Source of the DNA: a virus
Strand: one strand, 5' to 3'
Virus record (IMG/VR): IMGVR_UViG_3300033148_005363
Location: 22,605 to 86,604 of that record
DNA length: 64,000 nt
Shown here: piece after piece, positions 38,603-62,898 of the stretch
Layout: each line of letters opens with the position of its first letter
How positions within the stretch are numbered: the first letter of the stretch is position 1
Translations under genes and position numbers: made by a program
Notes under the pieces: generated by a model
Seen by the model: the letters and a program-made list of their open reading frames with translations, nothing else
Database searches by the model: none
What the model was told of the DNA's origin: nothing

Positions 38603-38675
38603 AGCACCGGGAGGGGATCGAACCCACTGCCTGCTGATTACGAAACAGCCGCTCTGCCAAGTGAGCTACCGGTGC
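38603..38675 (-). tRNA. tRNA-Thr(CGT)
   Basis: GCACCGGTAGCTCACTTGGCAGAGC-GCTG..TTCGTAA..CAGC...GGTTCGATCCC cloverleaf. Confidence 0.9.
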
Positions 38676-42845: not shown

Positions 42846-42935
42846 CAGAGTACCGGGGCACCTGAGCGCCCGTCAAGAGAATTCGACGATGCGGCGAAAA
42901 TAAGTGTTGACAGCCCGACAAGGGGACGGTAGAAG
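42846..42935. promoter_or_regulatory. divergent promoters flanking a TCGACG-ATG-CGGCGA operator-like site
   Basis: Minus: TTGACG...TACTCT; plus: TTGACA-17-TAGAAG; imperfect palindrome at 42883-42897. Confidence 0.6.
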
Positions 42936-45135: not shown

Positions 45136-45708
45136 TCACGCCGCCACTTCCTTTCCCCCAATCGCCACCAGCGTAGCAACGCGTCGCTCGTAGTGGATGG
45201 TCTCAATTTGGGCAGTGGCCACGGCCAGGTCCGCTGCGTCTCGTCCGACGAGCCCGAAGTCGTCGAACGAATCGAGGCTGACGACCCCGGGAAGGGACAG
45301 CATGTCTGCCCCTCCCATCGCCATGGCTCCGTCGAGCGTGAAGCACAGCGTGGCGTCTTCGATGTTTTTCCCTGGGGGGACCATTGCCCACTCCGGGACA
45401 GCCAAGTTCGCCTGCCAGCCGTCGTTCAGCTCGTCCAGGCTGGTCGTGTACCAGCCGTCAGAAGGAAGCGCTAAATTCGGGGAGAAACGCTGGTCCTTGC
45501 CCATGAGAAGGCAGGGACGACCGGGGCGATCCTCGCCCAGCCGCTTGGCCCGCGCTGCCGCAATGAGCAGAGCGACCTGCTCAGGCGGGAAGATGATCTG
45601 GTCAGCGCTGGCCGGGATGTCTGTGGAGATCTCGACGATCTCCGTGTCGGGGTTGGCCCATTTCTGGGCGAAATTGATTGAGATTACGGCCGCTGTCCTG
45701 TTGCTCAT
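45136..45708 (-). CDS. hypothetical early protein (first gene after promoter repeat copy 1)
   Basis: SD GGGGGG inside the repeat; in-frame upstream leaderless ATG. Confidence 0.65.
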   Translation of the reverse strand: MSNRTAAVISINFAQKWANPDTEIVEISTDIPASADQIIFPPEQVALLIAAARAKRLGEDRPGRPCLLMGKDQRFSPNLALPSDGWYTTSLDELNDGWQANLAVPEWAMVPPGKNIEDATLCFTLDGAMAMGGADMLSLPGVVSLDSFDDFGLVGRDAADLAVATAQIETIHYERRVATLVAIGGKEVAA

Positions 45709-45834
45709 CCCGTCCCCCCGGTTGGTCTTGCTGGTTTGTGTTTCCCTCTTCATGCCCACACTTTACCGCGTGGACACAGGGAGTCAACAACTTTATTCGA
45801 CGATACGTTGATTTATTTATTCGGGGAGGGGAGC
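45706..45834 (-). repeat. 129-bp promoter/operator/leader repeat, copy 1
   Basis: Near-identical to 49991-50119; TTGACT-16-TAAAGT; TCGACGATACGTTGA. Confidence 0.9.
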
Positions 45835-46377: not shown

Positions 46378-46492
46378 GGTTGCGTCCTCCTGTGCTCACC
46401 GCCTGGACGATACGTTGAATCGCGCAGCCTGTCAACCGCTTGCATTGCGTCGCCGGATCGATTACAAGGGAAACAGAGGATGGAGGTTGACC

Positions 46493-48189: not shown

Positions 48190-48506
48190 GCGGGTCCTCC
48201 TCGGTTGCAGGCATTGTATCGGGGCTGAATGGGAGGGGCAAGGAGCAGGGGACGCCCCAGGGCACAAGAGGCAAGCGAGTTCCAAACCACAAGGAGGCTC
48301 GAGTTCTGAGCCCCGGGGTTCCCCCGTTGAGTCGAATGTGCCAGGGCGAGGGAGGCGATGCAAGCACTTCTCAAGAGGCTGGACAAAGAGAAGCCCCGGC
48401 GGGGGGGGCACCCGGCCGGGGCAGGGGGTCAGTGGTCGGGGACCCCCGGGGTGAGTAGAAGACTACCACCAATCAGCGTTCCGTCAAGGAAACCGAACTG
48501 GAATTC

Positions 48507-48821
48507 TCACGCGTCGATGCAGTCAGCGCAGACGCCACCCATGAGTTCGTCCCGCGGGAAGACCAGCCCGCAGTCGTTGCAGACCCCGTGGAGTTCCCAG
48601 ACCGCACGAGCGGCCGCAGCCACGGCGTTGCAGCCCGGCGCCGTCGCCCCCGCCAAGACGCTGGCTGTCTCGATCGGCAACTCGGGGCACGCCTGATAAG
48701 CCAACGTGAGCGCCTCTACGAGCGTTTGAGCGCGGACCTGGACAACGAGGTCCACCGATAGCACGTCGGGGTGATCGGGCTCCCTGAGCGGTCCTGTGAC
48801 TCTGTAGATCTCTCTTCCCAT
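48507..48821 (-). CDS. hypothetical protein
   Basis: SD GGGAG; CNDC...CADC. Confidence 0.55.
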   Translation of the reverse strand: MGREIYRVTGPLREPDHPDVLSVDLVVQVRAQTLVEALTLAYQACPELPIETASVLAGATAPGCNAVAAAARAVWELHGVCNDCGLVFPRDELMGGVCADCIDA

Positions 48822-48832
48822 CTTGTTCTCCC

Positions 48833-49102
48833 CTACCGTCTCGGGTCGTTGAGGTCGTGGTCAGGGTCAACCGGCTTGCGGACGGTGAACTTCCACAACG
48901 TGTGCGGCCCCTGGATCGTGAGGGTAGTCCCGTCGCGCTTGAGGCTCTTGACGTGCCACGTGAGCGGCGAACTGCCGACCGCCGGTGTCAGCGTTGCCCA
49001 GTCCGCGCCCTGCATGCGGTAGAGATCCAGCGTTGCCCGCTCGCCTTTGAGGTCGTACTTGCCGCACTCCAGGATATCGACTTCAACAACGATCGGGGTC
49101 AT
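48833..49102 (-). CDS. hypothetical protein
   Basis: SD GGGAGG. Confidence 0.6.
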   Translation of the reverse strand: MTPIVVEVDILECGKYDLKGERATLDLYRMQGADWATLTPAVGSSPLTWHVKSLKRDGTTLTIQGPHTLWKFTVRKPVDPDHDLNDPRR

Positions 49103-49207
49103 GGCGTCCTCCCTTGCTGTTTCGTTTGCAGGCCCATATCTGCGCGATGATGGTGCCCAACAGAAAGGCCACCGCCCACGCTACGCCTGTCCAGTAGTCA
49201 GTCATGG

Positions 49208-49438
49208 CTACACCCCCCCGCAGTCGACCCAGCGCGAGCCGGGCCGGTTGCTCTTCGTCGCGATCTTGACGATCTCCCCGCTGTCGTAGCGGATCCCCAC
49301 GGCCAACACGTCGTCAGCAAAACCACCGACGCCAAACTCGCGCGTTGCGTAGCGCTTGGCGTCGGTGATCGTGTCGGCCTTGGCGTCTTCCCAGTATAGA
49401 GCACTCGTTGACGTAATCATCAGTATTGATGGGTTCAT
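49208..49438 (-). CDS. small protein, AcrIF9-like candidate (paralog of 62128-62355)
   Basis: ADTITDAKRYATRE...VLAVG...GEIVKIATK...RWVDC. Confidence 0.55.
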   Translation of the reverse strand: MNPSILMITSTSALYWEDAKADTITDAKRYATREFGVGGFADDVLAVGIRYDSGEIVKIATKSNRPGSRWVDCGGV

Positions 49439-49439
49439 T

Positions 49440-49670
49440 TCAGCCCTCCCCGTCGTCATTGATGAACCGAGCCGCTTCAGCCAGCAGCTCGTTGAGCGCC
49501 TGGATATCGCCCACGTCCCCCCAATCGGGCTGGCGGTCGTACATGCCCGCTGGCGTGATCACCGTCTTGACGATGTGGGCACCGAGCCCCTCAGTGATCC
49601 GCTTCAGGTGCTGACGGGCCTGCTCGGTATTCTCGTTGTAGGCTCGGGCCGCTGTGCGCTTGGTGGTCAT
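49440..49670 (-). CDS. hypothetical early protein
   Basis: ATGA coupling; PDWGDVGDI motif. Confidence 0.65.
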   Translation of the reverse strand: MTTKRTAARAYNENTEQARQHLKRITEGLGAHIVKTVITPAGMYDRQPDWGDVGDIQALNELLAEAARFINDDGEG

Positions 49671-49834
49671 TGGCTGTCTCCCAGCGCCTCATTGACCGCC
49701 GTCCTCCACTCCTCATGCGTCAGGCCCCATTCCTGGCAGTCGCCGTCGTCGGGGCCGTCTGCGAGGGCGTCCCTGAGTTCCTGCGCCGTGTTCATGTCCA
49801 TGCACGCTTCTGCGAATTCCGTTGTTTTGCTCAT
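49667..49834 (-). CDS. small acidic protein (MSKTTEFAEAC...DCQEWGLTHEEWRTAV...)
   Basis: 55 aa, below the ORF-track cutoff; SD GAGGA; coupled to the next gene. Confidence 0.6.
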   Translation of the reverse strand: MSKTTEFAEACMDMNTAQELRDALADGPDDGDCQEWGLTHEEWRTAVNEALGDSQ

Positions 49835-49849
49835 ATCGTCCTCTCCTGG

Positions 49850-49993
49850 TCAGCCGTACATTTCCTCGTCATCGTCGCAGTCGTAGAGCCTCCGGTTGCG
49901 TCGCTCCGACTCTGCCACCGCCGCCTCGAATTTGCGGTCCTGCTCGTTGATGATTTTGTCGTCTTTCGTCCAGGTCTCGTCATAGTTCTTCAT
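49850..49993 (-). CDS. small acidic protein (first gene after promoter repeat copy 2)
   Basis: Start codon lies inside the repeat; DDDEEM C-terminus. Confidence 0.55.
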   Translation of the reverse strand: MKNYDETWTKDDKIINEQDRKFEAAVAESERRNRRLYDCDDDEEMYG

Positions 49994-50119
49994 CCCGTCC
50001 CCCCGGTTGGTCTTGCTGGTTTGTGTTTCCCTCTTCATGCCCACATAATACCGCGTGGGCAGGGGGAGTCAATAGTTATTTTCGACGATACGTCGATTTA
50101 TTTATTCGGGGAGGGGAGC
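49991..50119 (-). repeat. 129-bp promoter/operator/leader repeat, copy 2
   Basis: TTGACT-16-TATTAT; perfect TCGACG-ATA-CGTCGA at 50082-50096. Confidence 0.9.
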
Positions 50120-50862
50120 GGGGGTCCGGTGGTCGGGGTGGCCTCAGCCTCCCGCGCTGGCTGCTTGGCCAGCCACGCCTTGAATTCGCGGTCATGGCGA
50201 TCGAAGTCGATCCGCAGCCGACGCTCTGCCTCCTGCGCGTCCTTGGTCAGATACCGCTTCGCTGCCACCCCGAACACCCGCGATTGCAGGAGGGTCCAGA
50301 GGACGCGGACCACGCGGATGCAGTCGGCAGACCCCTTCACGGGAGCACCGTCACCCGCTACGTCCGGGATGTCTGAGCAGTCGATCCCCAGCCGTTCGCA
50401 GATCGCAGGCAGTTTGTGCCGCCCGCTACCACGCCAGTACCGCCCGATGTCGTCGTGCTTCACCAGGGGCCAGGTATCGAGGATCGGGCGCATGGCCACG
50501 AGCCGCTGCCACCCCTCCCCCAGCTCCCGGTCCAGGATAGGCACGTCGAAGCCGTAGACGTTCTGACCCACGAGGATGTCCGCACCCTCAAGGAACGAGA
50601 TGAACCGCGGCGCTACCTCCACAAGGGGCGGCTTGCCGCGTACCATCTCATCAGTGATCCCGTTGTGTGCGGACGCCTCTTCCTCGATCGGGATCCCGGG
50701 GTCCACCAACATCGAGGCGCGGTAGAGGACCTCCCCGCGCCGGAACTTCACCGCGGCGATCTGGCAGATCCGAGACTTCTCCAGGTCAAGCCCCGTAGTC
50801 TCCAGATCGAAGGCGCACCACGTCTCATCCCACCAGGGGGATCCGTCGAAGAGGTCAGCCAT
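50098..50862 (-). CDS. DEDD 3'-5' exonuclease (DNA Pol III epsilon-like)
   Basis: FDLETTG, HNGITDEMV, VGQNVYGFD, LDT motifs. Confidence 0.88.
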   Translation of the reverse strand: MADLFDGSPWWDETWCAFDLETTGLDLEKSRICQIAAVKFRRGEVLYRASMLVDPGIPIEEEASAHNGITDEMVRGKPPLVEVAPRFISFLEGADILVGQNVYGFDVPILDRELGEGWQRLVAMRPILDTWPLVKHDDIGRYWRGSGRHKLPAICERLGIDCSDIPDVAGDGAPVKGSADCIRVVRVLWTLLQSRVFGVAAKRYLTKDAQEAERRLRIDFDRHDREFKAWLAKQPAREAEATPTTGPPLPSPNK

Positions 50863-51184
50863 CGCTGGCCTCCCCCCGCGCTGGCCGGCGGAACTTCACC
50901 CCCGCGTCCGTCGGCTCGTAGTAGCAGAGCAGCTCCACCCCCATGAACACCGAGAACGTATCCCGGTACTCCTTGGCCAGCGCCCGGGCCATGGCCTTCG
51001 CCCTCGGGATCGGGGTGGGCTTCGTCGTCGCCTGCTGATCGGGGGCTCGCACCGTGCCGTGGAAGACGTGCCCCCTGGGCTTCGCTATGCTGGTTCGCTT
51101 GACGGGCCTCTTCACGCGCCGCTTGCGGACCACGGGGGTCCCTGCACGGACAGGCTGCGGAGTATCTCGTTGTCGTTCATCCAT
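50855..51184 (-). CDS. basic hypothetical protein
   Basis: SD GAGGAG. Confidence 0.55.
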   Translation of the reverse strand: MDERQRDTPQPVRAGTPVVRKRRVKRPVKRTSIAKPRGHVFHGTVRAPDQQATTKPTPIPRAKAMARALAKEYRDTFSVFMGVELLCYYEPTDAGVKFRRPARGEASDG

Positions 51185-51201
51185 CGTCGTCTCCTCTTCA
51201 G

Positions 51202-51642
51202 TTAGAACGGGTTGTCTCCGCCGTTGTTGGCGCTGTCGTCGTCGTCTTTCTTCGCCGCGTGCCCCGTGGCCGCGTTGCCTGACAGGAGGTCCTTGGACGC
51301 CGGTGCCGGCTTGGGCTTCGGTTTGGGTGCGACCTTGGCCGCGGGCTTCGGCTCAGGGGCCTTGGCGGTCTCCGGCTCGGGCTCCGGCTCGGGATCGTCC
51401 TCCCCGTTGCCGTCCCCCCCGATGGACTCCACAGTCGCAGTGTTGGTCATCGCGCTGGTGACCGTCACGCGGGCCATGTCCCGGGTGACCACGTACGCGA
51501 AGCCCTGGATCTCCGGCTGATCCCGCGCCCACCGCACAGCGTCCTGGGTGTTGCCTCCCAGGTCCGGGTGTTCCACCGGCACGCGGATCTTGCTCGTCTT
51601 GTGCTCCAACATCACCACCAACTTTCCGTAATTCTTGGCCAC
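51202..51642 (-). CDS. hypothetical protein with PE/PK-rich tail ending in NPF
   Basis: SD AAGGAGG; SSB-like acidic tail. Confidence 0.6.
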   Translation of the reverse strand: MAKNYGKLVVMLEHKTSKIRVPVEHPDLGGNTQDAVRWARDQPEIQGFAYVVTRDMARVTVTSAMTNTATVESIGGDGNGEDDPEPEPEPETAKAPEPKPAAKVAPKPKPKPAPASKDLLSGNAATGHAAKKDDDDSANNGGDNPF

Positions 51643-51662
51643 CTTTGCACCTCCTTGGTTGC

Positions 51663-52625
51663 TTATTCGGCCATCAATACAGCGAAATCCTCCGGGACCT
51701 CGCGGATACGCTCACCGTCAAGGGTGCCATTCACGTCGCCAGCGGGGGCCTTCCCCCGTCCCCACTGCTTGAACCACATTGGGACGCCAGCCGCCTTGCA
51801 GACGTCCCGGATGCTACGCACCCAGCCGGGTTCAATGGGCCGCAGGCTCCCCGTCTCGCCTCCCACCAGCACCCAATCAATGGACGGGGCCTGCCGAAAT
51901 TCGCTGTCCCCTGGGCGCCCAACCGTCCTGACACCGCGGACGGCGATCTTCGGGAACAACGCGTGGGCCAGGATCACCGGCTCGATCTCCCTGAGCAGGG
52001 GCTCCAGTGACAGGACGCGGTGTGCCACCTCAGTATCATTCAGGAACCGCGCCCGTTCGTTGAGGGTCGCCGCGTTCTCCGCCGATGTCCCGAGCCAGAG
52101 GTTCGGGAGCGGGAACGATATCCGGCGCATCAGGCCGCCGCAGCCGTGCGAGCAAGGCTGCTCATCGCTGAGCCCCGCCGACCACGAGTCGAGCCCGCCG
52201 CAGTCCCGGCAGATCCCCAGGACATCGCCGTGCTGATCCCGCATCTCCCGCTCCTGATCCACCAACGCGTTCAGGAAGTCCCGCGCCCGCTGGATCCGCT
52301 TCGTGAGGACAATGAACGTATGCTGCGGGCAAACAGCGATCACCGCAAGGACCCGGCGAAGCACCGCATCAGGCACGTCCACGTGGAAAGGGTCCCCCAT
52401 GCTCGGCGCGAAGTACACCGTGGGCTTCTTGCGTTCGAGCGGCGCGGCGATCTTCGCTTCCTCGATCACCACAGAGAACTGATCGGGCTTGGGCGGATAC
52501 CCTGCGCGGCCTTGCAACCGATGAGCCATCTTCTTGGCGAAACAGAATTTACAGCCGTCCGAGACCTGGGTGCAGCCGTGCATCCAATTCCAGCTCGTTT
52601 TCCACCACTCGCTACCGTTAGACAT
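51663..52625 (-). CDS. DUF5131 / phage Gp37-Gp68 radical SAM protein with Zn-ribbon insert
   Basis: GCTQVSDGCKFCFA, SMGDPFH, LTKR, NLWLGTS, SLEPLL, IDWVLVGGETG, FKQWG. Confidence 0.9.
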   Translation of the reverse strand: MSNGSEWWKTSWNWMHGCTQVSDGCKFCFAKKMAHRLQGRAGYPPKPDQFSVVIEEAKIAAPLERKKPTVYFAPSMGDPFHVDVPDAVLRRVLAVIAVCPQHTFIVLTKRIQRARDFLNALVDQEREMRDQHGDVLGICRDCGGLDSWSAGLSDEQPCSHGCGGLMRRISFPLPNLWLGTSAENAATLNERARFLNDTEVAHRVLSLEPLLREIEPVILAHALFPKIAVRGVRTVGRPGDSEFRQAPSIDWVLVGGETGSLRPIEPGWVRSIRDVCKAAGVPMWFKQWGRGKAPAGDVNGTLDGERIREVPEDFAVLMAE

Positions 52626-52986
52626 CGGGGTCCTCCTGTTGTTGTTTCGTGACTGCGAAACTAGACTCACAATGTCCGCAGATTGCTACACCGTCCTCTT
52701 CATCGTCCTCTGTGACAGCAACAGGTTTGCCGCAGTCAGGACACGCAACCGCCCTCCCCGACAAGGTGAGCCATCTCGCAATCGCACCTGGCTTGTAATC
52801 CGGGTTCACGCTCTCATAATACGCGTCCACTGCAGCCTTGATAATTGCGGAATCGCCACCGCTTAGGTGCCGTATTACGAAGACACACTCCTCCAGTGAC
52901 TCATATGCGTCCCCTAGGTGGTCAAGCAATCCGCACCCCGTGAACTGACCATCCGCCGTTGCAACGTGTAAATAACTTCCTGACAT
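52618..52986 (-). CDS. hypothetical Zn-ribbon protein
   Basis: CPDC...CGHC. Confidence 0.55.
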   Translation of the reverse strand: MSGSYLHVATADGQFTGCGLLDHLGDAYESLEECVFVIRHLSGGDSAIIKAAVDAYYESVNPDYKPGAIARWLTLSGRAVACPDCGKPVAVTEDDEEDGVAICGHCESSFAVTKQQQEDPDV

Positions 52987-53001
52987 CGTCTCCCCCTGTC
53001 G

Positions 53002-53325
53002 TCAATCCTCGTCCAGGTTCACAAGGCTCGTACGCCCCGCCTCCCGGTCGAGGGTCCTATCCACTTCCGCCTGTACCGTCGAGGCCACAATGAGCCCCAG
53101 CCACTGCGGGATCACCACGTCGCGCCCCTCCAGGTGCGCGGTCACCATCTCCAGTACGGCATTGCGTCGCTTCCCACGGGTCTCGTCATCGACGAACGCG
53201 CCCACCTCGTCGGCCTGGTACGCACCGGCCTTGTAGAGCGCTGTGTCCAACTGAGCGGAGAACGAGGTCACCCACGATCGAGCGCGGGCGCGGGCCACGT
53301 CTTCCACCGTGCGAGGGTCAGTCAT
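53002..53325 (-). CDS. hypothetical protein
   Basis: Coupled ORF in the early operon. Confidence 0.5.
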   Translation of the reverse strand: MTDPRTVEDVARARARSWVTSFSAQLDTALYKAGAYQADEVGAFVDDETRGKRRNAVLEMVTAHLEGRDVVIPQWLGLIVASTVQAEVDRTLDREAGRTSLVNLDED

Positions 53326-53590
53326 CGGACACGTCGCAACGCGGGACGGGCCACCTGAAACTGACGAAATCCCACTCTTTCGCTTGAAGCGCGGCCAGTC
53401 GGGCACGCTCAGCCTTGACCACCCGCTTCGCCGCCGCCATGGCCTCGGGGGTACTGGCGACCATCTCGAACATGATCTCCAGCGCCTCCATCATGGACAT
53501 TCCCTCAGCGGTTTTCCGAGTCCACCCGAAGCGATCAATGCATTCTTGGGGCGGGGGCCACGGGAGCCCGCTGGGACCGGGGACTTTCAT
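53318..53590 (-). CDS. hypothetical protein
   Basis: ATGA coupling. Confidence 0.45.
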   Translation of the reverse strand: MKVPGPSGLPWPPPQECIDRFGWTRKTAEGMSMMEALEIMFEMVASTPEAMAAAKRVVKAERARLAALQAKEWDFVSFRWPVPRCDVSDD

Positions 53591-53798
53591 GGTTCCACCC
53601 GCACGCAGCGGACCTTGATCCGTGGGCCAGGCCATGGGCCAGTCCTGGGCATGGCGTCCCAGCACTTCCGCCACTCAGAGCAGAACTCAGGCCCGCCCTG
53701 CCAACGGTTCCCGAACTCCTCCCGCTCGTGGGGCTCCGCGTGGTGGCAGGTCTTGCATTGCTCTAGATCTCCAGCTCGTTTGCATTGGACGAGGTCAG

Positions 53799-54035
53799 TC
53801 ATCGTGGTCTCCACGTCGTCGGCTCATGCCCGAGAAACTCCACCAACTCGTCCCATCCGAACCCGCCGCGCTCTGCGATCCGGGATGCAGATTGTCCGCA
53901 GTGCCACTTTTCGTCGTATGCTCTCCACGCGTCCTCGTGCTCCCACCAGTCGATGAGACCTGGCGAACGATAGTCTGGAGAATGCGGCGGAACCCCCTGG
54001 TCTCCCTGGACTGGCGCAGTACGCTCGGGCATCAC
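53799..54035 (-). CDS. hypothetical phage protein
   Basis: AWRAY...GQSASRIAERGGFG motif seen in phage small proteins. Confidence 0.6.
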   Translation of the reverse strand: MMPERTAPVQGDQGVPPHSPDYRSPGLIDWWEHEDAWRAYDEKWHCGQSASRIAERGGFGWDELVEFLGHEPTTWRPR

Positions 54036-54406
54036 TCCACCTCGCAGCCCTCAAGCCGCTCCTCACAAACCGCCCATCTCCAGTTGTCCCGGTAGTCGTC
54101 AGCGCTGTACCTCCCCGGCCTGAACGACGCCGCGCCCACGCATGCCGTAAGCACAGCGGTCATGTCGTCGAAAAGCGCCTGCGCCTTGGCCCTGGTGCCC
54201 TTGGGCCAATGTTTCTCGCCGTCGTCATCTTCCAGTTGCTCCCACCCGAGGATTTTGGCCACGTCCCGCCATGCTCCATCCGAGTTGCCAAGCGGGCGTT
54301 TGCTGTCCACTGTCGGGACCGGATCATATAAGGCGTCCTCGTCCAACATGAAGTTCAACCGCCGCAGAATCTTGAGGTGCTCCTCTGTGACCACTACCGT
54401 TCTCAT
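54032..54406 (-). CDS. hypothetical phage protein
   Basis: TEEHLKILR...VDSKRPLGNSD...DVAKILG motif. Confidence 0.65.
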   Translation of the reverse strand: MRTVVVTEEHLKILRRLNFMLDEDALYDPVPTVDSKRPLGNSDGAWRDVAKILGWEQLEDDDGEKHWPKGTRAKAQALFDDMTAVLTACVGAASFRPGRYSADDYRDNWRWAVCEERLEGCEVE

Positions 54407-54984
54407 CACTCCCCCTCCTTGCAATCATCAAGAGCAGCCTCACAGGCCAACGCTCCTAAATCAATGCGCCACCGCTGTTTTGATGTCGGCTCTAGTTTGC
54501 CCGACTTCCTCCCCCCTCGCGAATTCCACCCGCCCGCGGGGGAGGACACTTTGCCGTCTTTTCGCATGCCTGCCTTGCGGTATATTGTGCCGCTGTGGAG
54601 AGTGCGGTCATGCTTCGCAATGCCCGTCACTGCCCCGCGTCTCGCAGCTTCCGCCCACCCGGCCCGGAGCACCGCGGACGCAGTGCCGTACGGCAGGCCG
54701 TCGTCGAGCACGAGCCGCGTGTTTTCTACCACCGCGCCGCCCTGGGGGAGTTTGCGGCAAACGGGACGCCCGAATAGCCCTGCGCCAACGGGCTCCAACG
54801 GGGCCGCACCGAAAAGACCGGCACCCATCCTGCGAACCACCACGGCGAAGAACGCACCCGGGGGTGGGTTGTCGAGGTAGTGCCCCGACTGCGCCATGTA
54901 CCCGCGAACGTCCTTTGCATACGGCTCCACGCGGATTTCAATCGGCATGTCTCCGAATCTGGCAGTGGGTGCAGGGTGCATCAT
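54406..54984 (-). CDS. Mom-like / XF1762-like GNAT-fold DNA modification protein
   Basis: HYL, FGRPVCRKL, VENTRLVL, SGTIYRKAG, KQRW motifs. Confidence 0.7.
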   Translation of the reverse strand: MMHPAPTARFGDMPIEIRVEPYAKDVRGYMAQSGHYLDNPPPGAFFAVVVRRMGAGLFGAAPLEPVGAGLFGRPVCRKLPQGGAVVENTRLVLDDGLPYGTASAVLRAGWAEAARRGAVTGIAKHDRTLHSGTIYRKAGMRKDGKVSSPAGGWNSRGGRKSGKLEPTSKQRWRIDLGALACEAALDDCKEGE

Positions 54985-55262
54985 TTTGCCTCTTCGTAAG
55001 CATCCAGTTGTTCCTCGCAGGCCGCCCACTTCGTCGTCCACCAGGCTAGCGCCTCGACGCTCATCACGACGCAACCGCCCGTCGTCAACCGCTGGCACTC
55101 CTCCAGGGGGTCAGGCTGGCCCGGCGCGTCCGTCCAGAGCTGGACGCTTACGGGGTCCTGGATGTGGATCGGGGTTGAGCAGGAGAGCAGACCAACCAGC
55201 AACGCCACAACCATCATTCCCGTCCCCAGTCCTGCCAGGAATCCGTATCGGTACTCGCTCAT
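54981..55262 (-). CDS. small lipoprotein
   Basis: VALLVGLLS|C lipobox. Confidence 0.55.
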   Translation of the reverse strand: MSEYRYGFLAGLGTGMMVVALLVGLLSCSTPIHIQDPVSVQLWTDAPGQPDPLEECQRLTTGGCVVMSVEALAWWTTKWAACEEQLDAYEEAK

Positions 55263-55263
55263 C

Positions 55264-55548
55264 TCAGAACTCCGATGATGCAAAGAGAAGAGGGAACTCG
55301 ACCCCGCTCTTGACCAACGCATCCAATTCGTCCCTGAACGACCGCGGATACGGGGGCTCCTCGACGCCCTCGCCCACGTGGATCATGCGCTCCATGGCCG
55401 CGGCTGTCAGTTCTGCGGGCTCGTTCTCTACCTCGCTGGGATCCATGCCGCAATCCACGATGCAGTAGTGACGGTACCATTTTTGAGCCTCGCTCGCTGT
55501 CCCCGCTGCAACGTACTCCGTCACCTCGTTCATCCTGTAAACCTTCAC
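55264..55548 (-). CDS. hypothetical phage protein
   Basis: MKVYRMNE..YVAA...LFASSEF. Confidence 0.65.
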   Translation of the reverse strand: MKVYRMNEVTEYVAAGTASEAQKWYRHYCIVDCGMDPSEVENEPAELTAAAMERMIHVGEGVEEPPYPRSFRDELDALVKSGVEFPLLFASSEF

Positions 55549-56012
55549 CTCGGCCCCTCCTCGTAGTCTGACAGCGCGGAAGCGGGGACGAACTCGACGA
55601 CGGTGCCGCCGTGCTTCTTGGCGATCAGGGCAGCGTGGGCCTGGACACCAGTCACGCAGCGGGATCCAATCAGCGTAGGAATGAAGACTCCGGCGTCAAA
55701 AGCGTACCATCTCGCTCTGTCGTCATGTTTTTTCTTCACCGCGTACAGCCTTGTCTCCTCACCTCCAGCCAAAAGAGCGCCGAACTCCAGAGCGTCTTCT
55801 TTGGTCCAGAACAGCCCTCTCCGGACGGTATCTCCCTCCAGCGTCCCGTCGCCCATTACAGCCACACAGTAGCCGTCTGGTCCGACAGCACTGGTCTCCT
55901 GTCCCGTGGCCCTGCTGACGTAGATCTCACCTGCGCAAGGCCAATCGCTCTTGGCGATCTCGTTCCATGGCGTGTCGTAGATTCTCACTCTCCACCTCCA
56001 ATCAAAATCCAA
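55545..56012 (-). CDS. hypothetical protein
   Basis: Coupled ORF. Confidence 0.45.
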   Translation of the reverse strand: MDFDWRWRVRIYDTPWNEIAKSDWPCAGEIYVSRATGQETSAVGPDGYCVAVMGDGTLEGDTVRRGLFWTKEDALEFGALLAGGEETRLYAVKKKHDDRARWYAFDAGVFIPTLIGSRCVTGVQAHAALIAKKHGGTVVEFVPASALSDYEEGPR

Positions 56013-56024
56013 TCAAAAAACCAA

Positions 56025-56267
56025 TCAGCACCAGTCCACCGTGGCCCTCGGGAAGAGGAGCTTGTACAGCGGCTCAATGTCCGCCCACCCGTGCGCCTCT
56101 TCGACCCCGATCCTGTCCTCGTCCTCTCCGAACGGGTCATCTTCGGCCCCTGGCTCCCTGATGCAGAATGACGTCCAGTCGTTATCCAAGACGATGACGA
56201 GTTTCTCTTCGTCGATCTCGCCTGACTTTACTTTTTCGTACAGCTCTTTGAGCGTGTTCAGCTTCAC
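56025..56267 (-). CDS. acidic hypothetical protein
   Basis: SD GAGGAGG; VLDND motif. Confidence 0.6.
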   Translation of the reverse strand: MKLNTLKELYEKVKSGEIDEEKLVIVLDNDWTSFCIREPGAEDDPFGEDEDRIGVEEAHGWADIEPLYKLLFPRATVDWC

Positions 56268-56297
56268 TTCCCAACCTCCTCAATCAAAAAGCCCGCC

Positions 56298-56947
56298 TCA
56301 GCCAACATCGGTTCGCTCAAATAGCGGGACGCCAGAGCGACGAAACTGCTCCAGTATGTGCCATGATTTGTTTCGCACGAAACTCGTCGAGTCAACGCTA
56401 TCTGCTCCCCACTTCTCAGCAAGGCGCAGTCTGTCGAGCGTGCCGCACCGTCCTATGTGCGCTTTCATGCCGACGCCGTGTGCATACTTGATCCACTCCT
56501 CCGCGGTGCTCCACTTCCAGTCTTCGGTGCCTCCGATAAAGAGATGCGAAAACCGGCGAGGAGCCCGCGTGTTGGATATGTCCCTCGGAGTCATTCCGTC
56601 CTGCACAGCCAGCGCCAGGTTTTGTGCGGTGAGTAGTTCGCCAAACGCCCACGAAAGCGAGAAGTCTAGGGACTGCTTGCCCCTTGTCACAATGTCCGGG
56701 GCAACTATGAAATCAAGCGAGAGGCCGACTGCGTATGCTTTGGCTATCGTGGCCATGAACACGTCAGCCATAAACGGAAACCGCGTTGCCAACACTGGAA
56801 CGCTCCGTTGTCGAGGGCGCAGGAAAACTGCTTATGCGTCTTATCTGGGCCGAACTGCGACGAGGACGACGCCAACATGATCCCGAGATCGTACTTGCGG
56901 TACATCTCCAAATCCTTGCCGTAGGCGTTGCCTGAGTAAATCTTCAT
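56298..56947 (-). pseudogene. TGT/DpdA-like (7-deazaguanine DNA transglycosylase-like) gene with a 1-nt frameshift near 56778
   Basis: ALDNGAF in one frame; PDIV, AVQDG, LFIGG, HIGR, DSVDST in the other. Confidence 0.65.
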
Positions 56948-57168
56948 CTCCCGGCCTCCTCAAGAGCAACCCCGCTCTCAGCCAACATCACCCGAACCTC
57001 CACCGTCGACATCCCGCCCCGAGCCGCAGCCCGCGCGAACCTCGCAGCCGCCGCATTCGCCTCAGCCCTGGCCCGCTTGCGACGGTGATGCCTGACCGCT
57101 ACCAGGATCCGGGCGGTCACGTCTACCGCGGTGGAGAGGAGGGCTAGGGCTGTTGCTGCGGTTGTCAT
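56944..57168 (-). CDS. hypothetical protein
   Basis: ATGA coupling at both ends. Confidence 0.5.
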   Translation of the reverse strand: MTTAATALALLSTAVDVTARILVAVRHHRRKRARAEANAAAARFARAAARGGMSTVEVRVMLAESGVALEEAGR

Positions 57169-57356
57169 GGGCGTTTCTCGACGTCGGGCACATCCATCGC
57201 CGCACGTAGACTCGCCTGCTCAGCCTTGATTCTCGTTGTCTCATGTTCATTGAGCAACCGCAACACCGCGTCAAGGGTCAGACTTTCGCCGCTCAGATGG
57301 TCGTAGAAGTACGCCCCGAATTTGCCGATGTATATCTCGTATCTTGGATCGTTCAC
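57165..57356 (-). CDS. hypothetical protein
   Basis: GKFGAYFYD motif; coupled ORF. Confidence 0.55.
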   Translation of the reverse strand: MNDPRYEIYIGKFGAYFYDHLSGESLTLDAVLRLLNEHETTRIKAEQASLRAAMDVPDVEKRP

Positions 57357-57536
57357 TCCTCACCTCCCGATCCCGAGACTACGAAGACGCGCGACCAGCG
57401 CGACTGTTTCCCGAAGTCAATCTCCACCACGAGGGCGGGGTCAATCTCCCCCAGGTCGAGGCGGGGGCGGTTGTGGAGCCGCAGACAGCCCCAGTCGATA
57501 TCAAAGCGGACGCTAGGCCAGAGAGCGCAGAGGAGC

Positions 57537-58550
57537 TTATTCATCAGGGCCTCCTTCCGCCTTGCGCTTGGGGCAGAAGTCAGGCGGAGGGCCAATGTCA
57601 ACGGCGGCCGTATAAAGAAATGCCCCTTTGCTTCCCCTTGCCGCAGCACAAACAGGGGTACCCAGGACGGCGCTGATCATGAATTCCCCGCACAGCCCGC
57701 ACCGCTCAGGCACGGGCTCAGGCGCTTCGGCGGGGGTGGGTACCGGGGGCGGGGCCTGCGAACACCCGTCAGCGTGCGTCGGGGCGTCGGTCCCGCCTAT
57801 GTAGCCCATGCCGCATTCGTCACAGCAGACGCCGTCGCAAACAGCGGGGTCGGGTGCGGTGGGGGTGGGTGCCGGGGGCGGGGTCAAGACGCGGGACATA
57901 AAGTCTTTCTCGATTGCCACAATGGACATCGTCGCTTCTTCTTCCGGTACACCGAGACTGATGACTTCTGCGATGTGATGGCACGCCAGATCCAACGCCC
58001 GCCGAAGCCGCACCACAACTCTCTGCGCGGTCAGGGCCTCGGCCTCTGCGTCGCGCGTGATGTCGGTTTGCTTTGCCAGGAGACCCCGCAGGTCCTTGAC
58101 TTCCCAGAACGAGGCCCTGTCCTCTCTTCGCAGGCGTTGGTTTTGGCGGGACAAGAGGTGGTACATGCGCGCCACCTCTTCCGCTGTCTGCACGATTTGT
58201 GAACCGTCCGGCGCGTCATCGATCCCGCAGGTGCCTCGCATGTGGCACGATGCCTGCCTGATCTTCACCAGGAGCGACGAGGCCCGGCTCCGCTCCTTCG
58301 CCAGCAGCGCCTCTAGCACCTCGACCTCCTCGTGGGCAGCGTACCCAGCCACGACGGCATCGTCTGAGCGCTTTTCGAGGTAGGCGTTGACGCGCTTTTC
58401 GTCCTCGAGGTCGGCCTTGAGGCGGTCGATTTCGTCGCGCAACACACCATGAGCCGCCTGTAGCTCGTCCGGCCCCTCCGTAGTCCTACCGACCCGCCGC
58501 GTCCGACTCAGCACCACGCCCAGGGCCTCTTCGACGGTCATGCGCTTCAT
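57537..58550 (-). CDS. coiled-coil protein with Cys-rich C-terminus
   Basis: SD GGAGG; ATGA coupling; heptad repeats. Confidence 0.6.
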   Translation of the reverse strand: MKRMTVEEALGVVLSRTRRVGRTTEGPDELQAAHGVLRDEIDRLKADLEDEKRVNAYLEKRSDDAVVAGYAAHEEVEVLEALLAKERSRASSLLVKIRQASCHMRGTCGIDDAPDGSQIVQTAEEVARMYHLLSRQNQRLRREDRASFWEVKDLRGLLAKQTDITRDAEAEALTAQRVVVRLRRALDLACHHIAEVISLGVPEEEATMSIVAIEKDFMSRVLTPPPAPTPTAPDPAVCDGVCCDECGMGYIGGTDAPTHADGCSQAPPPVPTPAEAPEPVPERCGLCGEFMISAVLGTPVCAAARGSKGAFLYTAAVDIGPPPDFCPKRKAEGGPDE

Positions 58551-58798
58551 GGTGCCTCCGGGGGGTCGGGCATCGGGAGCCAGTGGGTCGGGTCCACCCG
58601 AAACCCAGCCCTCCACCACGTCCTGCTTGCGGCATTCCACGTCACTAGCCGCCAGCCGACCCCCCGTAACCAGCCCAAGAAATCTCCGCTTATCTTCGGC
58701 GGTGCGGTCAGAGCCTTGGGGCGGGCGATCCCGTCGCGCCTGTCCTTGCCGGCGTGACGGTCCCACGCCCGCAGATTGCATTCAAAATTGCTTCCCAT
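58547..58798 (-). CDS. DUF551-like protein
   Basis: PTHWLPMPDPP C-terminus. Confidence 0.65.
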   Translation of the reverse strand: MGSNFECNLRAWDRHAGKDRRDGIARPKALTAPPKISGDFLGWLRGVGWRLVTWNAASRTWWRAGFRVDPTHWLPMPDPPEAP

Positions 58799-58868
58799 CG
58801 TCCACCTCCAGTCAGAGCCCCGGCAGGGTCCGATCCCTGCTTACGCCTTGCGGCCGGGGCGGTTGTGG

Positions 58869-59135
58869 CTACGTCGCCAGCGATACGATGCCAACAACAA
58901 GCCCCCCGATCCCAGCGAGCCCGGTCAGAACTCCCGCGAATACCGACTTCGTACCCGCCGCTACCAGCACGCCGACGGCAATCGAAATACCGATGCCTGC
59001 GGAGACCCACAAAGGAGCCGAGACCCACCACCACGACCAGTCGATCGTGTCTGTCAGTTTGAGGACCATGAAGACAATGAAAAGCACCATGGGAACTCCG
59101 ATACCGTTGCTGGAACTGCTGTTGCTTGATGACAT
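58869..59135 (-). CDS. small phage membrane protein
   Basis: SSSGIG..LFIVFMVLKLT..IDWSWWWVSAPLW, a common phage motif. Confidence 0.8.
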   Translation of the reverse strand: MSSSNSSSSNGIGVPMVLFIVFMVLKLTDTIDWSWWWVSAPLWVSAGIGISIAVGVLVAAGTKSVFAGVLTGLAGIGGLVVGIVSLAT

Positions 59136-59195
59136 CCTGTCCCTCCAATCGCGGACCATCCGCGTAAGCGCCCCTGCCGGGGCAGATGTGTCGCC

Positions 59196-59726
59196 TCATG
59201 GCGTTTTCAGCCATCCCCAAATGCTGCCATTCCTGATGAGATAGAACGTCGAATGGTGCATGTTGAAGTCTCTGGATATCGCCAGCGGAGACTCTCCGTT
59301 AGCGATTCGCTTTTTTATGTCAACCACTTGTTCCGTGGATAGTTTGGATATATTTCCTGCTACGTTGCCGGACATGCGAGCGTGTGTGTGCCTGTCCTTC
59401 AGGTTCTCCGACCGAGTACACCATTTCAGATTTTGCAGCCTGTTGTCGGCACGGACACCGTTTCTGTGTCCGCATTCATGCTTGGCGGTAGGCGGAACCC
59501 CCACGAAAGACAGCAGTACCATTCGGTGAACACGGCTTCTTTTGCTGTTGGTTTTGGCCACATAGAGATCGACGTAACAATACCCCTTCATGTCCACTCG
59601 TAACTTCAGCAGTCTTGCAGGCCTACGCAGCAGGGACCGAACACGCCCGGCAGACGACACCTCGTATCGGTCTTCGCCGCCAACAACCGGACGCCACTCT
59701 TCTTGTTCGGTGAATAGGTCTTTCAT
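59196..59726 (-). CDS. NUMOD4-HNH homing endonuclease
   Basis: EEWRPV..YEVSSAGRVRS, VHRMV, HRNGVRADNRLQNLKWCT.SEN; lower GC than the surroundings. Confidence 0.9.
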   Translation of the reverse strand: MKDLFTEQEEWRPVVGGEDRYEVSSAGRVRSLLRRPARLLKLRVDMKGYCYVDLYVAKTNSKRSRVHRMVLLSFVGVPPTAKHECGHRNGVRADNRLQNLKWCTRSENLKDRHTHARMSGNVAGNISKLSTEQVVDIKKRIANGESPLAISRDFNMHHSTFYLIRNGSIWGWLKTP

Positions 59727-59920
59727 GGAGCACCTCTTGGTAACGGAAGGTCCGAGAGGGGGACTACCAAGTACCCCCGACCCGGAACCTTCCAGGTAGT
59801 TGCGATAGCAAGTCGCAACACCCATGCTGGCAGACTCTGTCCTCAAAGTCAAGTCCTCCAATCAGTCTCGCCAGGTCCGGGACTCGAACCCGGCTTGCCC
59901 ACCTGGGCGCGGCTGCCTCG

Positions 59921-60595
59921 CTACACCTTCCTCATCCTCTCCCCTGCCAACTCCACCGCGTCCCCCTTCACGTCTACCCCATGAAACCGCCGTCCCTGCC
60001 TTACCACGGCCTCCCCGAACGCGCCCGACCCCATGAAGGGATCCAGGATCAACTCGCCATCCTGCGTACTCTGACGCACCAGGAGCTCGCCGAAAGCGAC
60101 GGGCTTCTCCGTGGGGTAGCCGCCGCGTACGCGCTTGAACGCCTGGACGTTGGGTTCACCGAGGTCTGCCAGTTTGCGCTTTCCCTTCTCAAGGAACATC
60201 ACCAGCTCGTACCGGGACCGGTAGTGGTACCCCATGCCCATGGCGACCTTGTCCCACACGATCGGAGTCCAGACCTTGAACCCCACCGCCGAAGCTGTGC
60301 CCGCTACGCACCGCCAGGCCGTCTCCCAATCGCAAAAGACGTAGCAGTGCCGGTCAGGCTTGAGGATCCGGTAGAGGCCAGCGATCACCGCGGCGAGAGC
60401 CTCGTTGGAGATCACCGGGAACCAGTCGGCAGTCAACCGCGTGGTGGTGCCAACGCGCCGGTGCTTCTCCAGACTCTCATACGGGGGATCGGTCAGGATC
60501 AGATCGTAGTGCTCGTCGGGTGCCCACTGCAACCAGTCGAAAACATCCTGGCAGTAGAGCCGGAATCCGTCACCGGTTGCAGTGGGAATGTTCAT
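59921..60595 (-). CDS. N4/N6 DNA methyltransferase (beta class)
   Basis: LTDPPY, YPTEKP, ILDPFMGSG motifs. Confidence 0.9.
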   Translation of the reverse strand: MNIPTATGDGFRLYCQDVFDWLQWAPDEHYDLILTDPPYESLEKHRRVGTTTRLTADWFPVISNEALAAVIAGLYRILKPDRHCYVFCDWETAWRCVAGTASAVGFKVWTPIVWDKVAMGMGYHYRSRYELVMFLEKGKRKLADLGEPNVQAFKRVRGGYPTEKPVAFGELLVRQSTQDGELILDPFMGSGAFGEAVVRQGRRFHGVDVKGDAVELAGERMRKV

Positions 60596-60599
60596 CGGT

Positions 60600-61154
60600 C
60601 TAAGTGCAAGGACTGAAAGGGAAATCATCGTCGTCGGCGCTGCTCGGACGCGTCACCGGCTCGTTCCCCCCGCCCTCGTTCCCCTGGCCAGCGGGTGGCT
60701 GCTGGGGCTGCTGGGGTTGCCGCTGCTGGGGCTCGTTGCGGCCATCGTCGCGTCCCCCTCCCTGATCCCCGCGTCCACCGCCGCCGCCGCCGTAGTTGCG
60801 ATCCCCGCCGCCGCCGCCGCCGCCAGCCGCACCCAAGAACTGGACGGTGAAGGCCACGATCTCCGTGGTGTACCGATCCATCCCGTCCTTGTCCTGCCAC
60901 TTCCGGGTCTGGAGCCGCCCTTCCAGGTAGACCGAGCTGCCCTTGCGGAGATACTCGCTACAGCGCTCCGCGAGTTTGGTCCACACCGTGATTCTGTGCC
61001 ACTCGACGCGGTCCTTCCAGCCGTCTCCGTCCTTCTCGCTGTCGTTGGTGGCGAGACTGAAGTTGGCCACCGCGGTTCCCGATTGGGTGTACCGCAGTTC
61101 GGGGTCACTGCCGAGGTTCCCCAACAGGATGACCTTGTTCACTGATCCGCTCAT
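60600..61154 (-). CDS. ssb: single-stranded DNA-binding protein
   Basis: [20 protein letters not shown]...EWHRI...EGRLQTRKW; Gly-rich linker; DDDDFPF tail. Confidence 0.97.
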
Positions 61155-61227
61155 GTTCTCCTCCGATGTAGTGGTGTGTTTTCCATGGCCCTGGGTCCTC
61201 CGGTTTCTCCGCCGCTCAACCTGGGAT

Positions 61228-61259
61228 CACTTATACGATGCGTCGATAAACGAGTCAAG
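61228..61259 (-). promoter_or_regulatory. ssb promoter TTGACT...TATAAG with an operator-like site in the spacer
   Basis: TATACG-ATG-CGTCGA at 61232-61246 overlaps the -10 and spacer. Confidence 0.6.
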
Positions 61260-61386
61260 GGAAAAATCGTTGGGCAGATACACCGCTGCCCTGGGGTTGA
61301 ATCCGGGGCAGTGGCGAGGTTGAACGAAGATGACCCGAGGAGGCCACTCCGAGACTCCCTGACCGTAGTCGAGGTCTGGGAGGTTG

Positions 61387-62124
61387 TCAAGATCGATCTC
61401 CCTGCCTCGCGACGATCCCCCGCACGGTCTCAGGGTGCCAGCGTACGCCGGTCTTCGTGGGGACCGCGTCCTCGTCGAGTTGACGAGCGACCTTTGCCAG
61501 CGAAACCCCCTCCCTGCGCAGCCTGACCATCCGGTTGATCACCGCCTGCTCCGCGGCATTCTCGACCAACCCGATCACCCCGTCAGCAGCGGGTACAGCG
61601 TCGAACCCGTAGGGCACCGTCCCGCCCGTTTTCTCCCCGCGCTGGCGCTTCTCCGCAAGTGCCGCGGTGGTGCGCTCCCGCCCGAGGTTCCTCTCCATCT
61701 CAGCGACCCCCGCAAGGACCGTGAGCATGAATTTTCCCATTGCTGAGCTGGTGTCCATCGCTGACCCGCCCTGGTCAACGAGGTGGAGGGCCACGCCGCG
61801 CCGGTCCCAGTCCTCGACGACCTGGAGGGCGTCCCCGGCGTTGCGGAAGAGCCGGTCCAGTTTGAGTGCGATGACGTTGCCGCCCTTGCCGCTGGTCCCC
61901 GGTCCCTGGATCGAGTAGAGCAGATCAGCGCCCCCCGGGCGATCTCCCAGGGCCTTCCCCGCGCTCACGCCCTCGTCGCGGATCAGATCCACAAGATCGA
62001 AGCCCTTCATCTCGCAGTAGAGCCGGATCGCCCGCTCCTGCGCGTCGAGGCCCAGCCCCGACTCCGCCTGCTCTTGGGTCGATACGCGGACGTAGCCGAT
62101 GGCGCGCTGGGTTGCTTCAATCAT
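61387..62124 (-). CDS. serine recombinase (resolvase domain plus short recombinase DNA-binding domain)
   Basis: IGYVRVSTQEQ, DEGVS..RPG, KLDRLFR, AEMER..ERT, VPYGF, WHPETV. Confidence 0.92.
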   Translation of the reverse strand: MIEATQRAIGYVRVSTQEQAESGLGLDAQERAIRLYCEMKGFDLVDLIRDEGVSAGKALGDRPGGADLLYSIQGPGTSGKGGNVIALKLDRLFRNAGDALQVVEDWDRRGVALHLVDQGGSAMDTSSAMGKFMLTVLAGVAEMERNLGRERTTAALAEKRQRGEKTGGTVPYGFDAVPAADGVIGLVENAAEQAVINRMVRLRREGVSLAKVARQLDEDAVPTKTGVRWHPETVRGIVARQGDRS

Positions 62125-62127
62125 GGG

Positions 62128-62355
62128 TCAGCCCTCCCACCCGTTCACCGACTCCCACTGACCGCCCCAGTAGTTGGCCTTCTTCGCTACTGGCTCGATC
62201 TCGCCGTCGTCGTGCTTGATGCCGACCATGAGCGTCGAATCCCTGTAGCCAGCGCCGCACTCGCGGGTCGCCGCCCGCTTGGCCGCGGCGAGCGTCTTGG
62301 CGTCGGTGGTTTCCCAGGCCCTCTGTGTGGAGTTGCTGATCATGTACTGGCTCAT
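62128..62355 (-). CDS. small protein, AcrIF9-like candidate (paralog of 49208-49438)
   Basis: AKTLAAAKRAATRE...TLMVG...GEIEPVAKK...QWES. Confidence 0.55.
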   Translation of the reverse strand: MSQYMISNSTQRAWETTDAKTLAAAKRAATRECGAGYRDSTLMVGIKHDDGEIEPVAKKANYWGGQWESVNGWEG

Positions 62356-62365: not shown

Positions 62366-62785
62366 TCAGTCAATCGTCATGTAGGCGTGCAATTTCTCCT
62401 GCTCACGCTCAAACCTGTCCATCTCGTCAGCGTGCAGACGGGTTGCCTCGTCCTGCACCGCCTGCGCCTGCATCTCGGGGGTCTCGTTGGCGGCGATGAC
62501 CATCGCCTGCACCTGAGCGTAGCGGTCAGCGTCGAGGCCAACGCGCCCGATGTGGCCAGCCACGCCCTCGGGGAGGCGGCGCATCGTGTACTTGCGGGAG
62601 AGAAGGCCGCCCTGCTCGGCTACCGTCGAGCCGCCCACGTAGGCCCGGCACTCTACCGAGTGCTTGCCGTTGCCCTTGGTCTGGCCCCATCCGATGCTGG
62701 TGGTACCCTCGGTGACACTGACGACGACCTTGACATCGTGCCCGGTTGCCGTCGTCCACTCCATGCTGTCCGTGTAAATCATCAT
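62366..62785 (-). CDS. hypothetical early protein (first gene after promoter repeat copy 3)
   Basis: SD GGAGG; in-frame leaderless ATG upstream. Confidence 0.65.
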   Translation of the reverse strand: MMIYTDSMEWTTATGHDVKVVVSVTEGTTSIGWGQTKGNGKHSVECRAYVGGSTVAEQGGLLSRKYTMRRLPEGVAGHIGRVGLDADRYAQVQAMVIAANETPEMQAQAVQDEATRLHADEMDRFEREQEKLHAYMTID

Positions 62786-62828
62786 GTCAGCCTCCCGGGC
62801 TGCGTTGGTCTGGTTTGTGGTTGCGTCC

Positions 62829-62898
62829 TTCATGCCCACATCATACCGCGCCAGGGACGGGTGTCAATAGTTATTTTCGACGAATCGTCGATTTATTT
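62829..62898 (-). promoter_or_regulatory. diverged promoter/operator repeat, copy 3
   Basis: AATAAATCGACGATTCGTCGAAAATAACTATTGACA-16-TATGAT-GTGGGC-ATGAAG. Confidence 0.85.

Follow-up and report, generated by a model that had tools for sequence, protein, structure and literature searches.

Two diverged AcrIF9-family proteins encoded by a tailed phage, candidate anti-CRISPRs of a wider metagenomic clade

Do two small proteins encoded in a 64,000-nucleotide stretch of viral DNA (referred to here as the window) belong to the AcrIF9 family of anti-CRISPRs, and would they still act on a CRISPR complex? The window comprises bases 22605 to 86604 of IMG/VR record IMGVR_UViG_3300033148_005363, an 86,604-bp phage genome with direct terminal repeats that is estimated to be complete. 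Judging by sequence, its open reading frames (ORFs) A and B (Table 1) are true, if distant, relatives of AcrIF9 and represent a new divergent clade of this known anti-CRISPR family. By analogy with AcrIF9, they probably act as inhibitors of a host CRISPR complex. The fuller reading, that both are early-transcribed AcrIF9-family anti-CRISPRs that most likely target the Cas7 backbone in a type I complex of the host, is the one that we favor, with moderate confidence.

Paralogy, relationship to AcrIF9, and the wider clade

ORF A and ORF B, both present on the minus strand, share 31 of 72 aligned residues (43% identity; BLASTP E value [E], 7e-18), in agreement with an earlier, sequence-only reading of this DNA that had described them as paralogs. 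The ATG of ORF A is found 5 nt 3' of a ribosome-binding site, GGGGAGGG, just past the stop codon of the upstream gene; ORF B is preceded by the ribosome-binding site GAGGGGGA. A longer, 83-aa form of ORF A, starting from position 49459, is possible; the alignment to ORF B and the other relatives begins at the Met of the 76-aa form, and exactly this form is present in the searched protein library (P0002). The GC content at third codon positions, 0.81 in ORF A and 0.89 in ORF B, is in line with that of the neighboring genes. When all six frames of the 86,604-bp genome were searched with a hidden Markov model (HMM) of the family, ORF A and ORF B were the only two matches at E of ≤10, and no third copy was found. 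Going by their similarity scores, the two genes are old, diverged copies and not the result of a recent duplication, because some metagenomic proteins score about as high as the paralog. The best nonself match of ORF A is a metagenomic protein (60.5 bits, slightly above the 57.4 bits of ORF B); for ORF B, there is almost no difference between the scores of ORF A (57.4 bits) and a further metagenomic protein (57.0 bits).

Searches of the PDB show that the match to AcrIF9 grows with the depth of the profile. The sole match of ORF A alone at E of ≤10 was the AcrIF9 structure 7bb5 (E = 0.42), and AcrIF9 was not among the matches of ORF B alone at the same threshold. The E value for 7bb5 was 0.0084 with a profile of the two paralogs, 6.3e-4 with 9 sequences, and 9.1e-9 with 55 sequences. 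In the search with the 55-sequence profile, the top five matches were five distinct AcrIF9 sequences (7bb5, followed by 6vqv, 7c78, 7chr, and 6w1x with E values of 0.0028 to 0.029), and the first unrelated match had an E value of 0.66. Matches to PRDM9 zinc fingers were rejected as an artifact: they were a sum of six weak repeats, each with an independent E value of ≥3.8, and disappeared with the deeper profile.

A second line of evidence comes from a natural AcrIF9 of the Aa1 type, encoded at positions 5992 to 6213 of an IMG/VR contig (L003; GC content, 47%), which matches 7bb5 with an E value of 5.7e-28. ORF A is 34% identical to this protein over 58 residues (BLASTP E = 5e-6), the two-paralog profile aligns with it with a probability of 89% (hhalign E = 2.3e-6), and the protein itself matches 28 of the 77 other sequences of a 78-sequence set at E of <1e-3 (BLASTP). 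According to PMC8034650 and PMC9478129, validated AcrIF9 proteins share 33 to 40% identity with each other, so that the distance between the window proteins and AcrIF9 is similar to that among the proven members of the family. With five PDB AcrIF9 sequences leading the profile search and a pairwise E value of 5e-6 to the L003 protein, the resemblance to AcrIF9 proposed in the sequence-only reading is borne out, and the AcrIF9 motif that it had given matches the 6vqv chain.

The reference members of the family are Aa1-AcrIF9 (PDB 7BB5), Pa/Pd AcrIF9 (6VQV and 7CHR), and the Proteus penneri AcrIF9 in the Csy complex (6W1X). Like these, ORF A and ORF B are phage-borne single-domain proteins of ~70 to 75 aa with the same motif order over the full length and significant profile and pairwise similarity. 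The shared features include a T-L-x-x-A-K-R-x-A-[TS]-[RK] helix with the equivalents of K31, R32, and K36, followed by the equivalents of K58 and R63 and an invariant C-terminal Trp. Their size also fits, as the AcrIF9 chains in the PDB have 68 to 76 aa, except for the 91-aa chain of 7bb5, whose extra length we take to be a tag.

In the ESM Atlas, the models of ORF A and the L003 AcrIF9 have predicted template-modeling (TM) scores of 0.73 and 0.65, respectively, and share, in an indirect comparison, two clusters of structural neighbors (a 136-aa HTH_59 cluster with 93 members and a 70-aa cluster with 160 members) as well as the DUF6894 family. The 136-aa cluster, in which all members carry Pfam HTH_59 and 57% are viral, is the top structural neighbor of the L003 model (TM score by query, 0.84) and is also a structural neighbor of the ORF A model (TM score, 0.71). 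On the basis of these models, it may represent an AcrIF9-like domain fused to a helix-turn-helix (HTH) domain, similar to a fusion of an anti-CRISPR (Acr) with an anti-CRISPR-associated (Aca) protein. An ESM Atlas feature search gave scores of 0.82 to 0.84, which are under the meaningful level.

When the two-paralog profile was used in an exhaustive HMMER search, 64 representatives were retrieved at E of ≤1e-3, nearly all of them 66 to 90 aa long; six reach 1e-10, two of these being ORF A and ORF B themselves. A word-indexed search with the protein recovered only the query. The ten best relatives are singleton clusters of metagenome origin without names, and another search with a profile brought in 17 further relatives, each either without a name or labeled "hypothetical." The working alignment (A2) consists of ORF A, ORF B, and 53 of the 62 nonself matches, 55 sequences in total. 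Two long proteins, P0047 (561 aa, with Pfam BNR repeats) and P0048 (2864 aa), were dropped from it as repeat-driven matches. Seven longer forms (P0003, P0019, P0026, P0028, P0034, P0054, and P0055) were kept out, and their extensions contain no HTH or other domain at E of ≤0.1; longer fused forms of the family were not found in the search, which counts as weak evidence. Pfam, PHROGs, and NCBIfam contain no family for ORF A, ORF B, or the 55 aligned relatives. A DUF4189 match of ORF B (E = 0.012, 16.6 bits) was set aside, the cutoff being 25 bits. A tblastn search of the phage collection revealed no relative of either ORF.

Thirteen loci encoding relatives (2 in IMG/VR and 11 in metagenomes) were retrieved; their GC contents range from 47% to 65%. 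Most neighbors in these loci have no family, the exceptions being DUF1064 (Pfam), a weak ribbon-helix-helix match, and weak zinc-ribbon matches. The recognizable neighbors are phage early-region genes, among them, as read by eye, a putative cI/Cro-like pair and a putative Mor-like protein. In one locus (L014), the homolog (positions 4439 to 4678) is located two genes upstream of a gene for the antirestriction protein ArdA (5431 to 5955; E = 8.2e-8 to PDB 2w82), which suggests that this element carries an antidefense gene cluster. A near-identical contig (L015) has the same homolog and stops before the ArdA gene. The literature searches made turned up no paper on this clade or on relatives of AcrIF9 beyond the Proteobacteria. 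By sequence, the two window proteins fall within a large sister clade of the characterized AcrIF9 proteins that is metagenome-only and has no name.

Conserved and altered surfaces and the proposed function

Functional residues were mapped via HMM alignments to the PDB AcrIF9 sequences, and conservation was counted over 78 aligned sequences, some of them near-duplicates. As described in PMC7264359 and PMC8034650, residues K31, R32, K36, K58, and R63 of AcrIF9 form a basic patch that tethers nonspecific DNA, A34 belongs to the protein core, Q38 and W54 are buried against Cas7f, F39-F40-H41 form an aromatic clamp, and Y5 lies against Cas8f; the latter of these sources also reports that substitution of Q38 abolishes AcrIF9 function. 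The basic patch is conserved in the window proteins: all five equivalents are basic in ORF A (K28, R29, R33, K62, and R69) and four of the five in ORF B (K26, R27, R31, K59, and Q66). In the whole alignment, these columns are basic in 77, 62, 51, 72, and 56 of the 78 sequences, respectively. The equivalent of A34 is Ala in 65 sequences, the C-terminal Trp is present in all 78, and a clade-specific Trp, W16, is found in 68. On this sequence evidence, the clade appears to retain the DNA-facing surface of AcrIF9 and its core, with the surface that is laid on the Cas7f thumb rebuilt.

In the mechanism proposed for ORF A and ORF B, a strong sigma70-like promoter would drive early transcription of each gene within a short operon whose small genes mostly lack a known family. 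Each protein, by analogy with AcrIF9, would then bind the Cas7 backbone of the host type I surveillance complex, this binding would block CRISPR RNA (crRNA)-guided target binding, and the conserved basic patch (in ORF A, the five residues listed above) would tether nonspecific DNA to the complex. If so, the window proteins would also be similar to AcrIF1, another small protein that occupies the Cas7 backbone, obstructing the crRNA guide; in PMC7264359 and PMC8034650, AcrIF1 is described as binding the same Cas7f thumb sites as AcrIF9 with an unrelated fold. No sequence similarity was found between AcrIF1 and the window proteins. A complex prediction for ORF A (with alignment A2) and the Swiss-Prot entry CSY3_PSEAB, run without controls, gave a score of 0.00 and speaks neither for nor against binding.

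The strong promoters, the short terminator-bounded operons, and the ArdA gene near the L014 homolog count in favor of this reading. Several observations weigh against it. The equivalents of Q38 and W54 are replaced, by G/F and K in ORF A and by A/C and P in ORF B; the alignment near W54 is uncertain, and it places no Trp there in the validated Aa1-AcrIF9 either. Past the helix, the segment that corresponds to F39-F40-H41 is 2 to 3 residues longer and contains an [FY]-G-x-G-[YF] loop. The aromatic clamp keeps only the F40 equivalent (F40 in ORF A and Y37 in ORF B; Tyr or Phe in 64 of 78 sequences), and the equivalent of Y5 is Leu in ORF A; a Tyr occupies this column in 67 of the 78 sequences and in ORF B (Y4). 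Together with W16 and the presence of two paralogs in one genome, these changes set the window proteins apart from AcrIF9. In addition, a search for the host through the proteins of the capsid, portal, and sheath region, DUF5131, primase, and helicase gave matches at ≤39% identity to cultured phages from many phyla. No named or characterized protein is found among the relatives retrieved, and a pattern scan of 185,579 species genomes revealed no relative. Finally, Pfam and PHROGs searches detected no HTH or aca-like gene in either operon. An Aca neighbor is not required, however, since only 20% of the RefSeq AcrIF9 homologs adjoin an Aca gene, according to PMC6739104.

Alternatively, ORF A and ORF B may have AcrIF9 ancestry and fold and a different job, acting on another defense system or host complex or serving as small nucleic-acid-binding early proteins, with the conserved basic patch contacting another partner. 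The loss of the Cas7f contacts Q38 and W54, the lengthened contact loop, the lack of a detectable aca gene adjoining either copy, the absence of characterized members among the clade relatives found, and the spread of clade contigs over 47 to 65% GC, possibly exceeding the range known for type I-F systems, all go in this direction. Yet the best-conserved positions of the clade, the equivalents of K31, R32, and K58, are those of the functionally important exposed surface of AcrIF9, and PMC9478129 reports no DNA binding by AcrIF9 alone, so that the patch would make sense mainly on a Cascade-like scaffold. Furthermore, validated AcrIF9 proteins, at just 33 to 40% identity, have kept their function (PMC8034650 and PMC9478129). 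We regard such a change of function as the main rival, possible and rather unlikely.

If ORF A and ORF B are AcrIF9-family anti-CRISPRs, as we favor, both copies probably recognize Cas7 surfaces unlike that of Pseudomonas Cas7f, and perhaps unlike each other's, because the loop corresponding to the Cas7f contact is remodeled and the copies share only 43% identity. The suggestion made in the sequence-only reading, that the paralogs may have diverged toward different Cascade variants, is consistent with the replacement of the residues that contact Cas7f. A more specific proposal, that the clade's loop retargets the fold to non-Cas7f backbones (types I-E and I-C or other class 1 systems) and that the two copies disarm two complexes, is speculative, and we consider it unlikely. 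On that proposal, the copies may also need to distinguish the host Cascade from a candidate type IV-B Cas7-based complex of the phage itself; the first 22 kb of the genome contain a weak Csf2 signal (TIGR03115; E = 2e-6, below the cutoff).

That the AcrIF9 resemblance is a chance or compositional match of short proteins, with the ORFs forming an unrelated small phage family, is very improbable: although ORF A alone reaches only an E value of 0.42 to 7bb5, ORF B alone does not find AcrIF9 at E of ≤10, and the short profiles gave a clearly spurious PRDM9 match through summed repeats, the top of the PDB list is occupied by all five distinct AcrIF9 sequences and nothing else (9e-9 to 0.029), the deeper profile loses the artifact while the AcrIF9 match strengthens, independent tests against a natural AcrIF9 succeed both pairwise (5e-6) and by profile (2.3e-6), and the alignments span the whole domain with the same motif order.

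Operons, promoters, and the phage genome

The sequence-only reading had placed each of the two genes under a repeat promoter. Three promoter repeats do exist, and copies 2 and 3 are located upstream of ORF A and ORF B, respectively; the genes do not follow them directly, as ORF A comes fourth in its operon, at a distance of ~610 nt downstream from copy 2, and ORF B comes second in its own, at ~485 nt downstream from copy 3. Between the promoter and ORF A or ORF B, the minus strand has no terminator-like site. Both operons are short and terminator-bounded (Table 1).

Table 1. Features of the ORF A and ORF B operons and associated sites (window coordinates, except where genome coordinates are indicated)
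Feature	Position	Strand	Details
ORF A, AcrIF9-family protein (paralog 1)	49208-49438	-	76 aa; ATG at 49438
ORF B, AcrIF9-family protein (paralog 2)	62128-62355	-	75 aa
Promoter copy 2	50045-50072	-	TTGACT, 16-nt spacer, TATTAT; 10/12 match to sigma70 consensus; ATG at 50038
Promoter copy 3	62840-62867	-	TTGACA, 16-nt spacer, TATGAT; 11/12 match to sigma70 consensus; ATG at 62833
15-bp palindrome, just 5' of the copy 2 -35 box	50082-50096		TCGACG-N3-CGTCGA; 0 mismatches
15-bp palindrome, 5' of the copy 3 -35 box	62877-62891		
Three small genes between promoter copy 2 and ORF A	49440-50038	-	62, 55, and 76 aa; no known family
Three genes past ORF A, same operon	48507-49205	-	40 aa (hydrophobic), 89 aa, and 104 aa; no known family
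Terminator-like GC hairpin and T-rich tail, end of ORF A operon	48393-48409	-	
First gene, ORF B operon	62366-62833	-	155 aa; no known family
Third gene, ORF B operon (short serine recombinase)	61387-62124	-	245 aa; Pfam Resolvase, 2e-34; Pfam Recombinase, 8.9e-7
Terminator-like hairpin and T-run, end of ORF B operon	61272-61291	-	
Palindrome sites	42883-42897, 45797-45811, 46404-46418, 50082-50096, 61232-61246, 62877-62891; genome C1:7212-7226		

The promoter repeats (family D2) comprise three 71-nt copies, 83 to 85% identical, at positions 45748 to 45818, 50033 to 50103, and 62828 to 62898. On the minus strand, each consists of an A/T-rich stretch, the 15-bp palindrome TCGACG-N3-CGTCGA, a TTGAC(A/T) box, a 16-nt spacer, a TAT(G/T)AT box, six bases, and an ATG codon. 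The region holds nine promoter-like sites versus 2.7 expected, and a search for the palindrome found 4 sites versus 0.55 expected. In promoter copies 2 and 3, the ATG is only 7 nt past the -10 box, and the transcripts may therefore lack a leader. In all three cassettes, another in-frame ATG, led by a Shine-Dalgarno sequence, follows 16 to 17 codons downstream, and the first cassette gene could start at either ATG. Between copies 1 and 2, the repeat extends to 135 nt (positions 45700 to 45834 and 49985 to 50119, 90% identical) and includes the first 16 codons, so that the genes after these two copies share their initial peptide, MKRETQTSKTNRGDGM, before diverging.

Apart from the recombinase, the neighbors of ORF A and ORF B in both operons have no Pfam or annotated PHROG family. 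The serine recombinase encoded next to ORF B matches positions 86 to 308 of the 651-position integrase profile phrog_95, and its Pfam Recombinase domain is partial. Judging from these matches, it could be either a large serine recombinase in truncated form or a small protein resembling an invertase; a putative role as a palindrome-binding DNA regulator is conceivable.

A canonical acr-aca operon has a strong promoter with inverted repeats and is repressed by a downstream HTH protein, Aca. The operons described here are similar in that a strong consensus-like promoter, located beside a 15-bp palindrome, drives small genes mostly without a known family. They differ in that no HTH gene was found in either operon and that the palindrome also marks promoters of non-acr operons. 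With 0 to 2 mismatches, the palindrome is found at or within at least seven promoter-like sites genome-wide, non-acr operons included, and because of this distribution, it looks like the site of a putative phage-wide early-gene regulator and not like a dedicated Aca operator. In the three cassettes, it is located 5' of the -35 box; at 61232 to 61246 (ahead of a gene for a single-stranded DNA-binding [SSB] protein), at 46404 to 46418 (ahead of another gene), and at genome positions 7212 to 7226 (ahead of an operon), it overlaps the spacer or the -10 box. These placements suggest a single regulator with opposite effects at different promoters. The genome encodes two SSB-family proteins, at window positions 60600 to 61154 (minus strand; Pfam SSB, E = 4.6e-41) and genome positions C1:5603 to 5896 (minus strand; E = 1.6e-18); the C terminus of the larger one extends four residues past the usual acidic D-D-D-x-P-F tail.

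The genome has a GC content of ~64% and belongs to a tailed phage, with HK97-type capsid, portal, Mu F-like, tape-measure-like, baseplate J, and gpD-like hub proteins recognized by Pfam. A close cultured relative was not found; megablast of 15 kb against the phage collection gave no match. Beside the portal gene, a 655-aa ORF on the minus strand (33929 to 35896), probably the large terminase, shows a weak Hint/intein-like match (Pfam Vint, E = 1.9e-4) and contains an odd tRNA-like element with a four-base anticodon (35220 to 35306; ARAGORN). Clustered genes for three phage tRNAs (Pro-CGG, Trp-CCA, and Thr-CGT) are found at positions 38436 to 38675, also on the minus strand. At 56298 to 56947 (minus strand), overlapping ORFs of 67 and 165 aa look like a single frameshift-split gene; the 165-aa ORF has no Pfam match at E of ≤0.01.

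Implications for the AcrIF9 family

AcrIF9 is among the best-understood anti-CRISPRs and has the unusual property of causing Cascade to bind any DNA. Should the relationship described here hold, the AcrIF9 family would reach into a broad unnamed clade that comprises ~60 representative clusters (at 50% identity) and was encountered here solely in contigs from metagenomes and viruses, with GC contents of 47 to 65%. Such a clade would provide a natural series for the retargeting of one small fold between Cascade variants, as well as new candidate off-switches for type I CRISPR tools. With two old paralogs in one phage that also carries a candidate type IV-B complex, the genome analyzed here would offer a compact test case.

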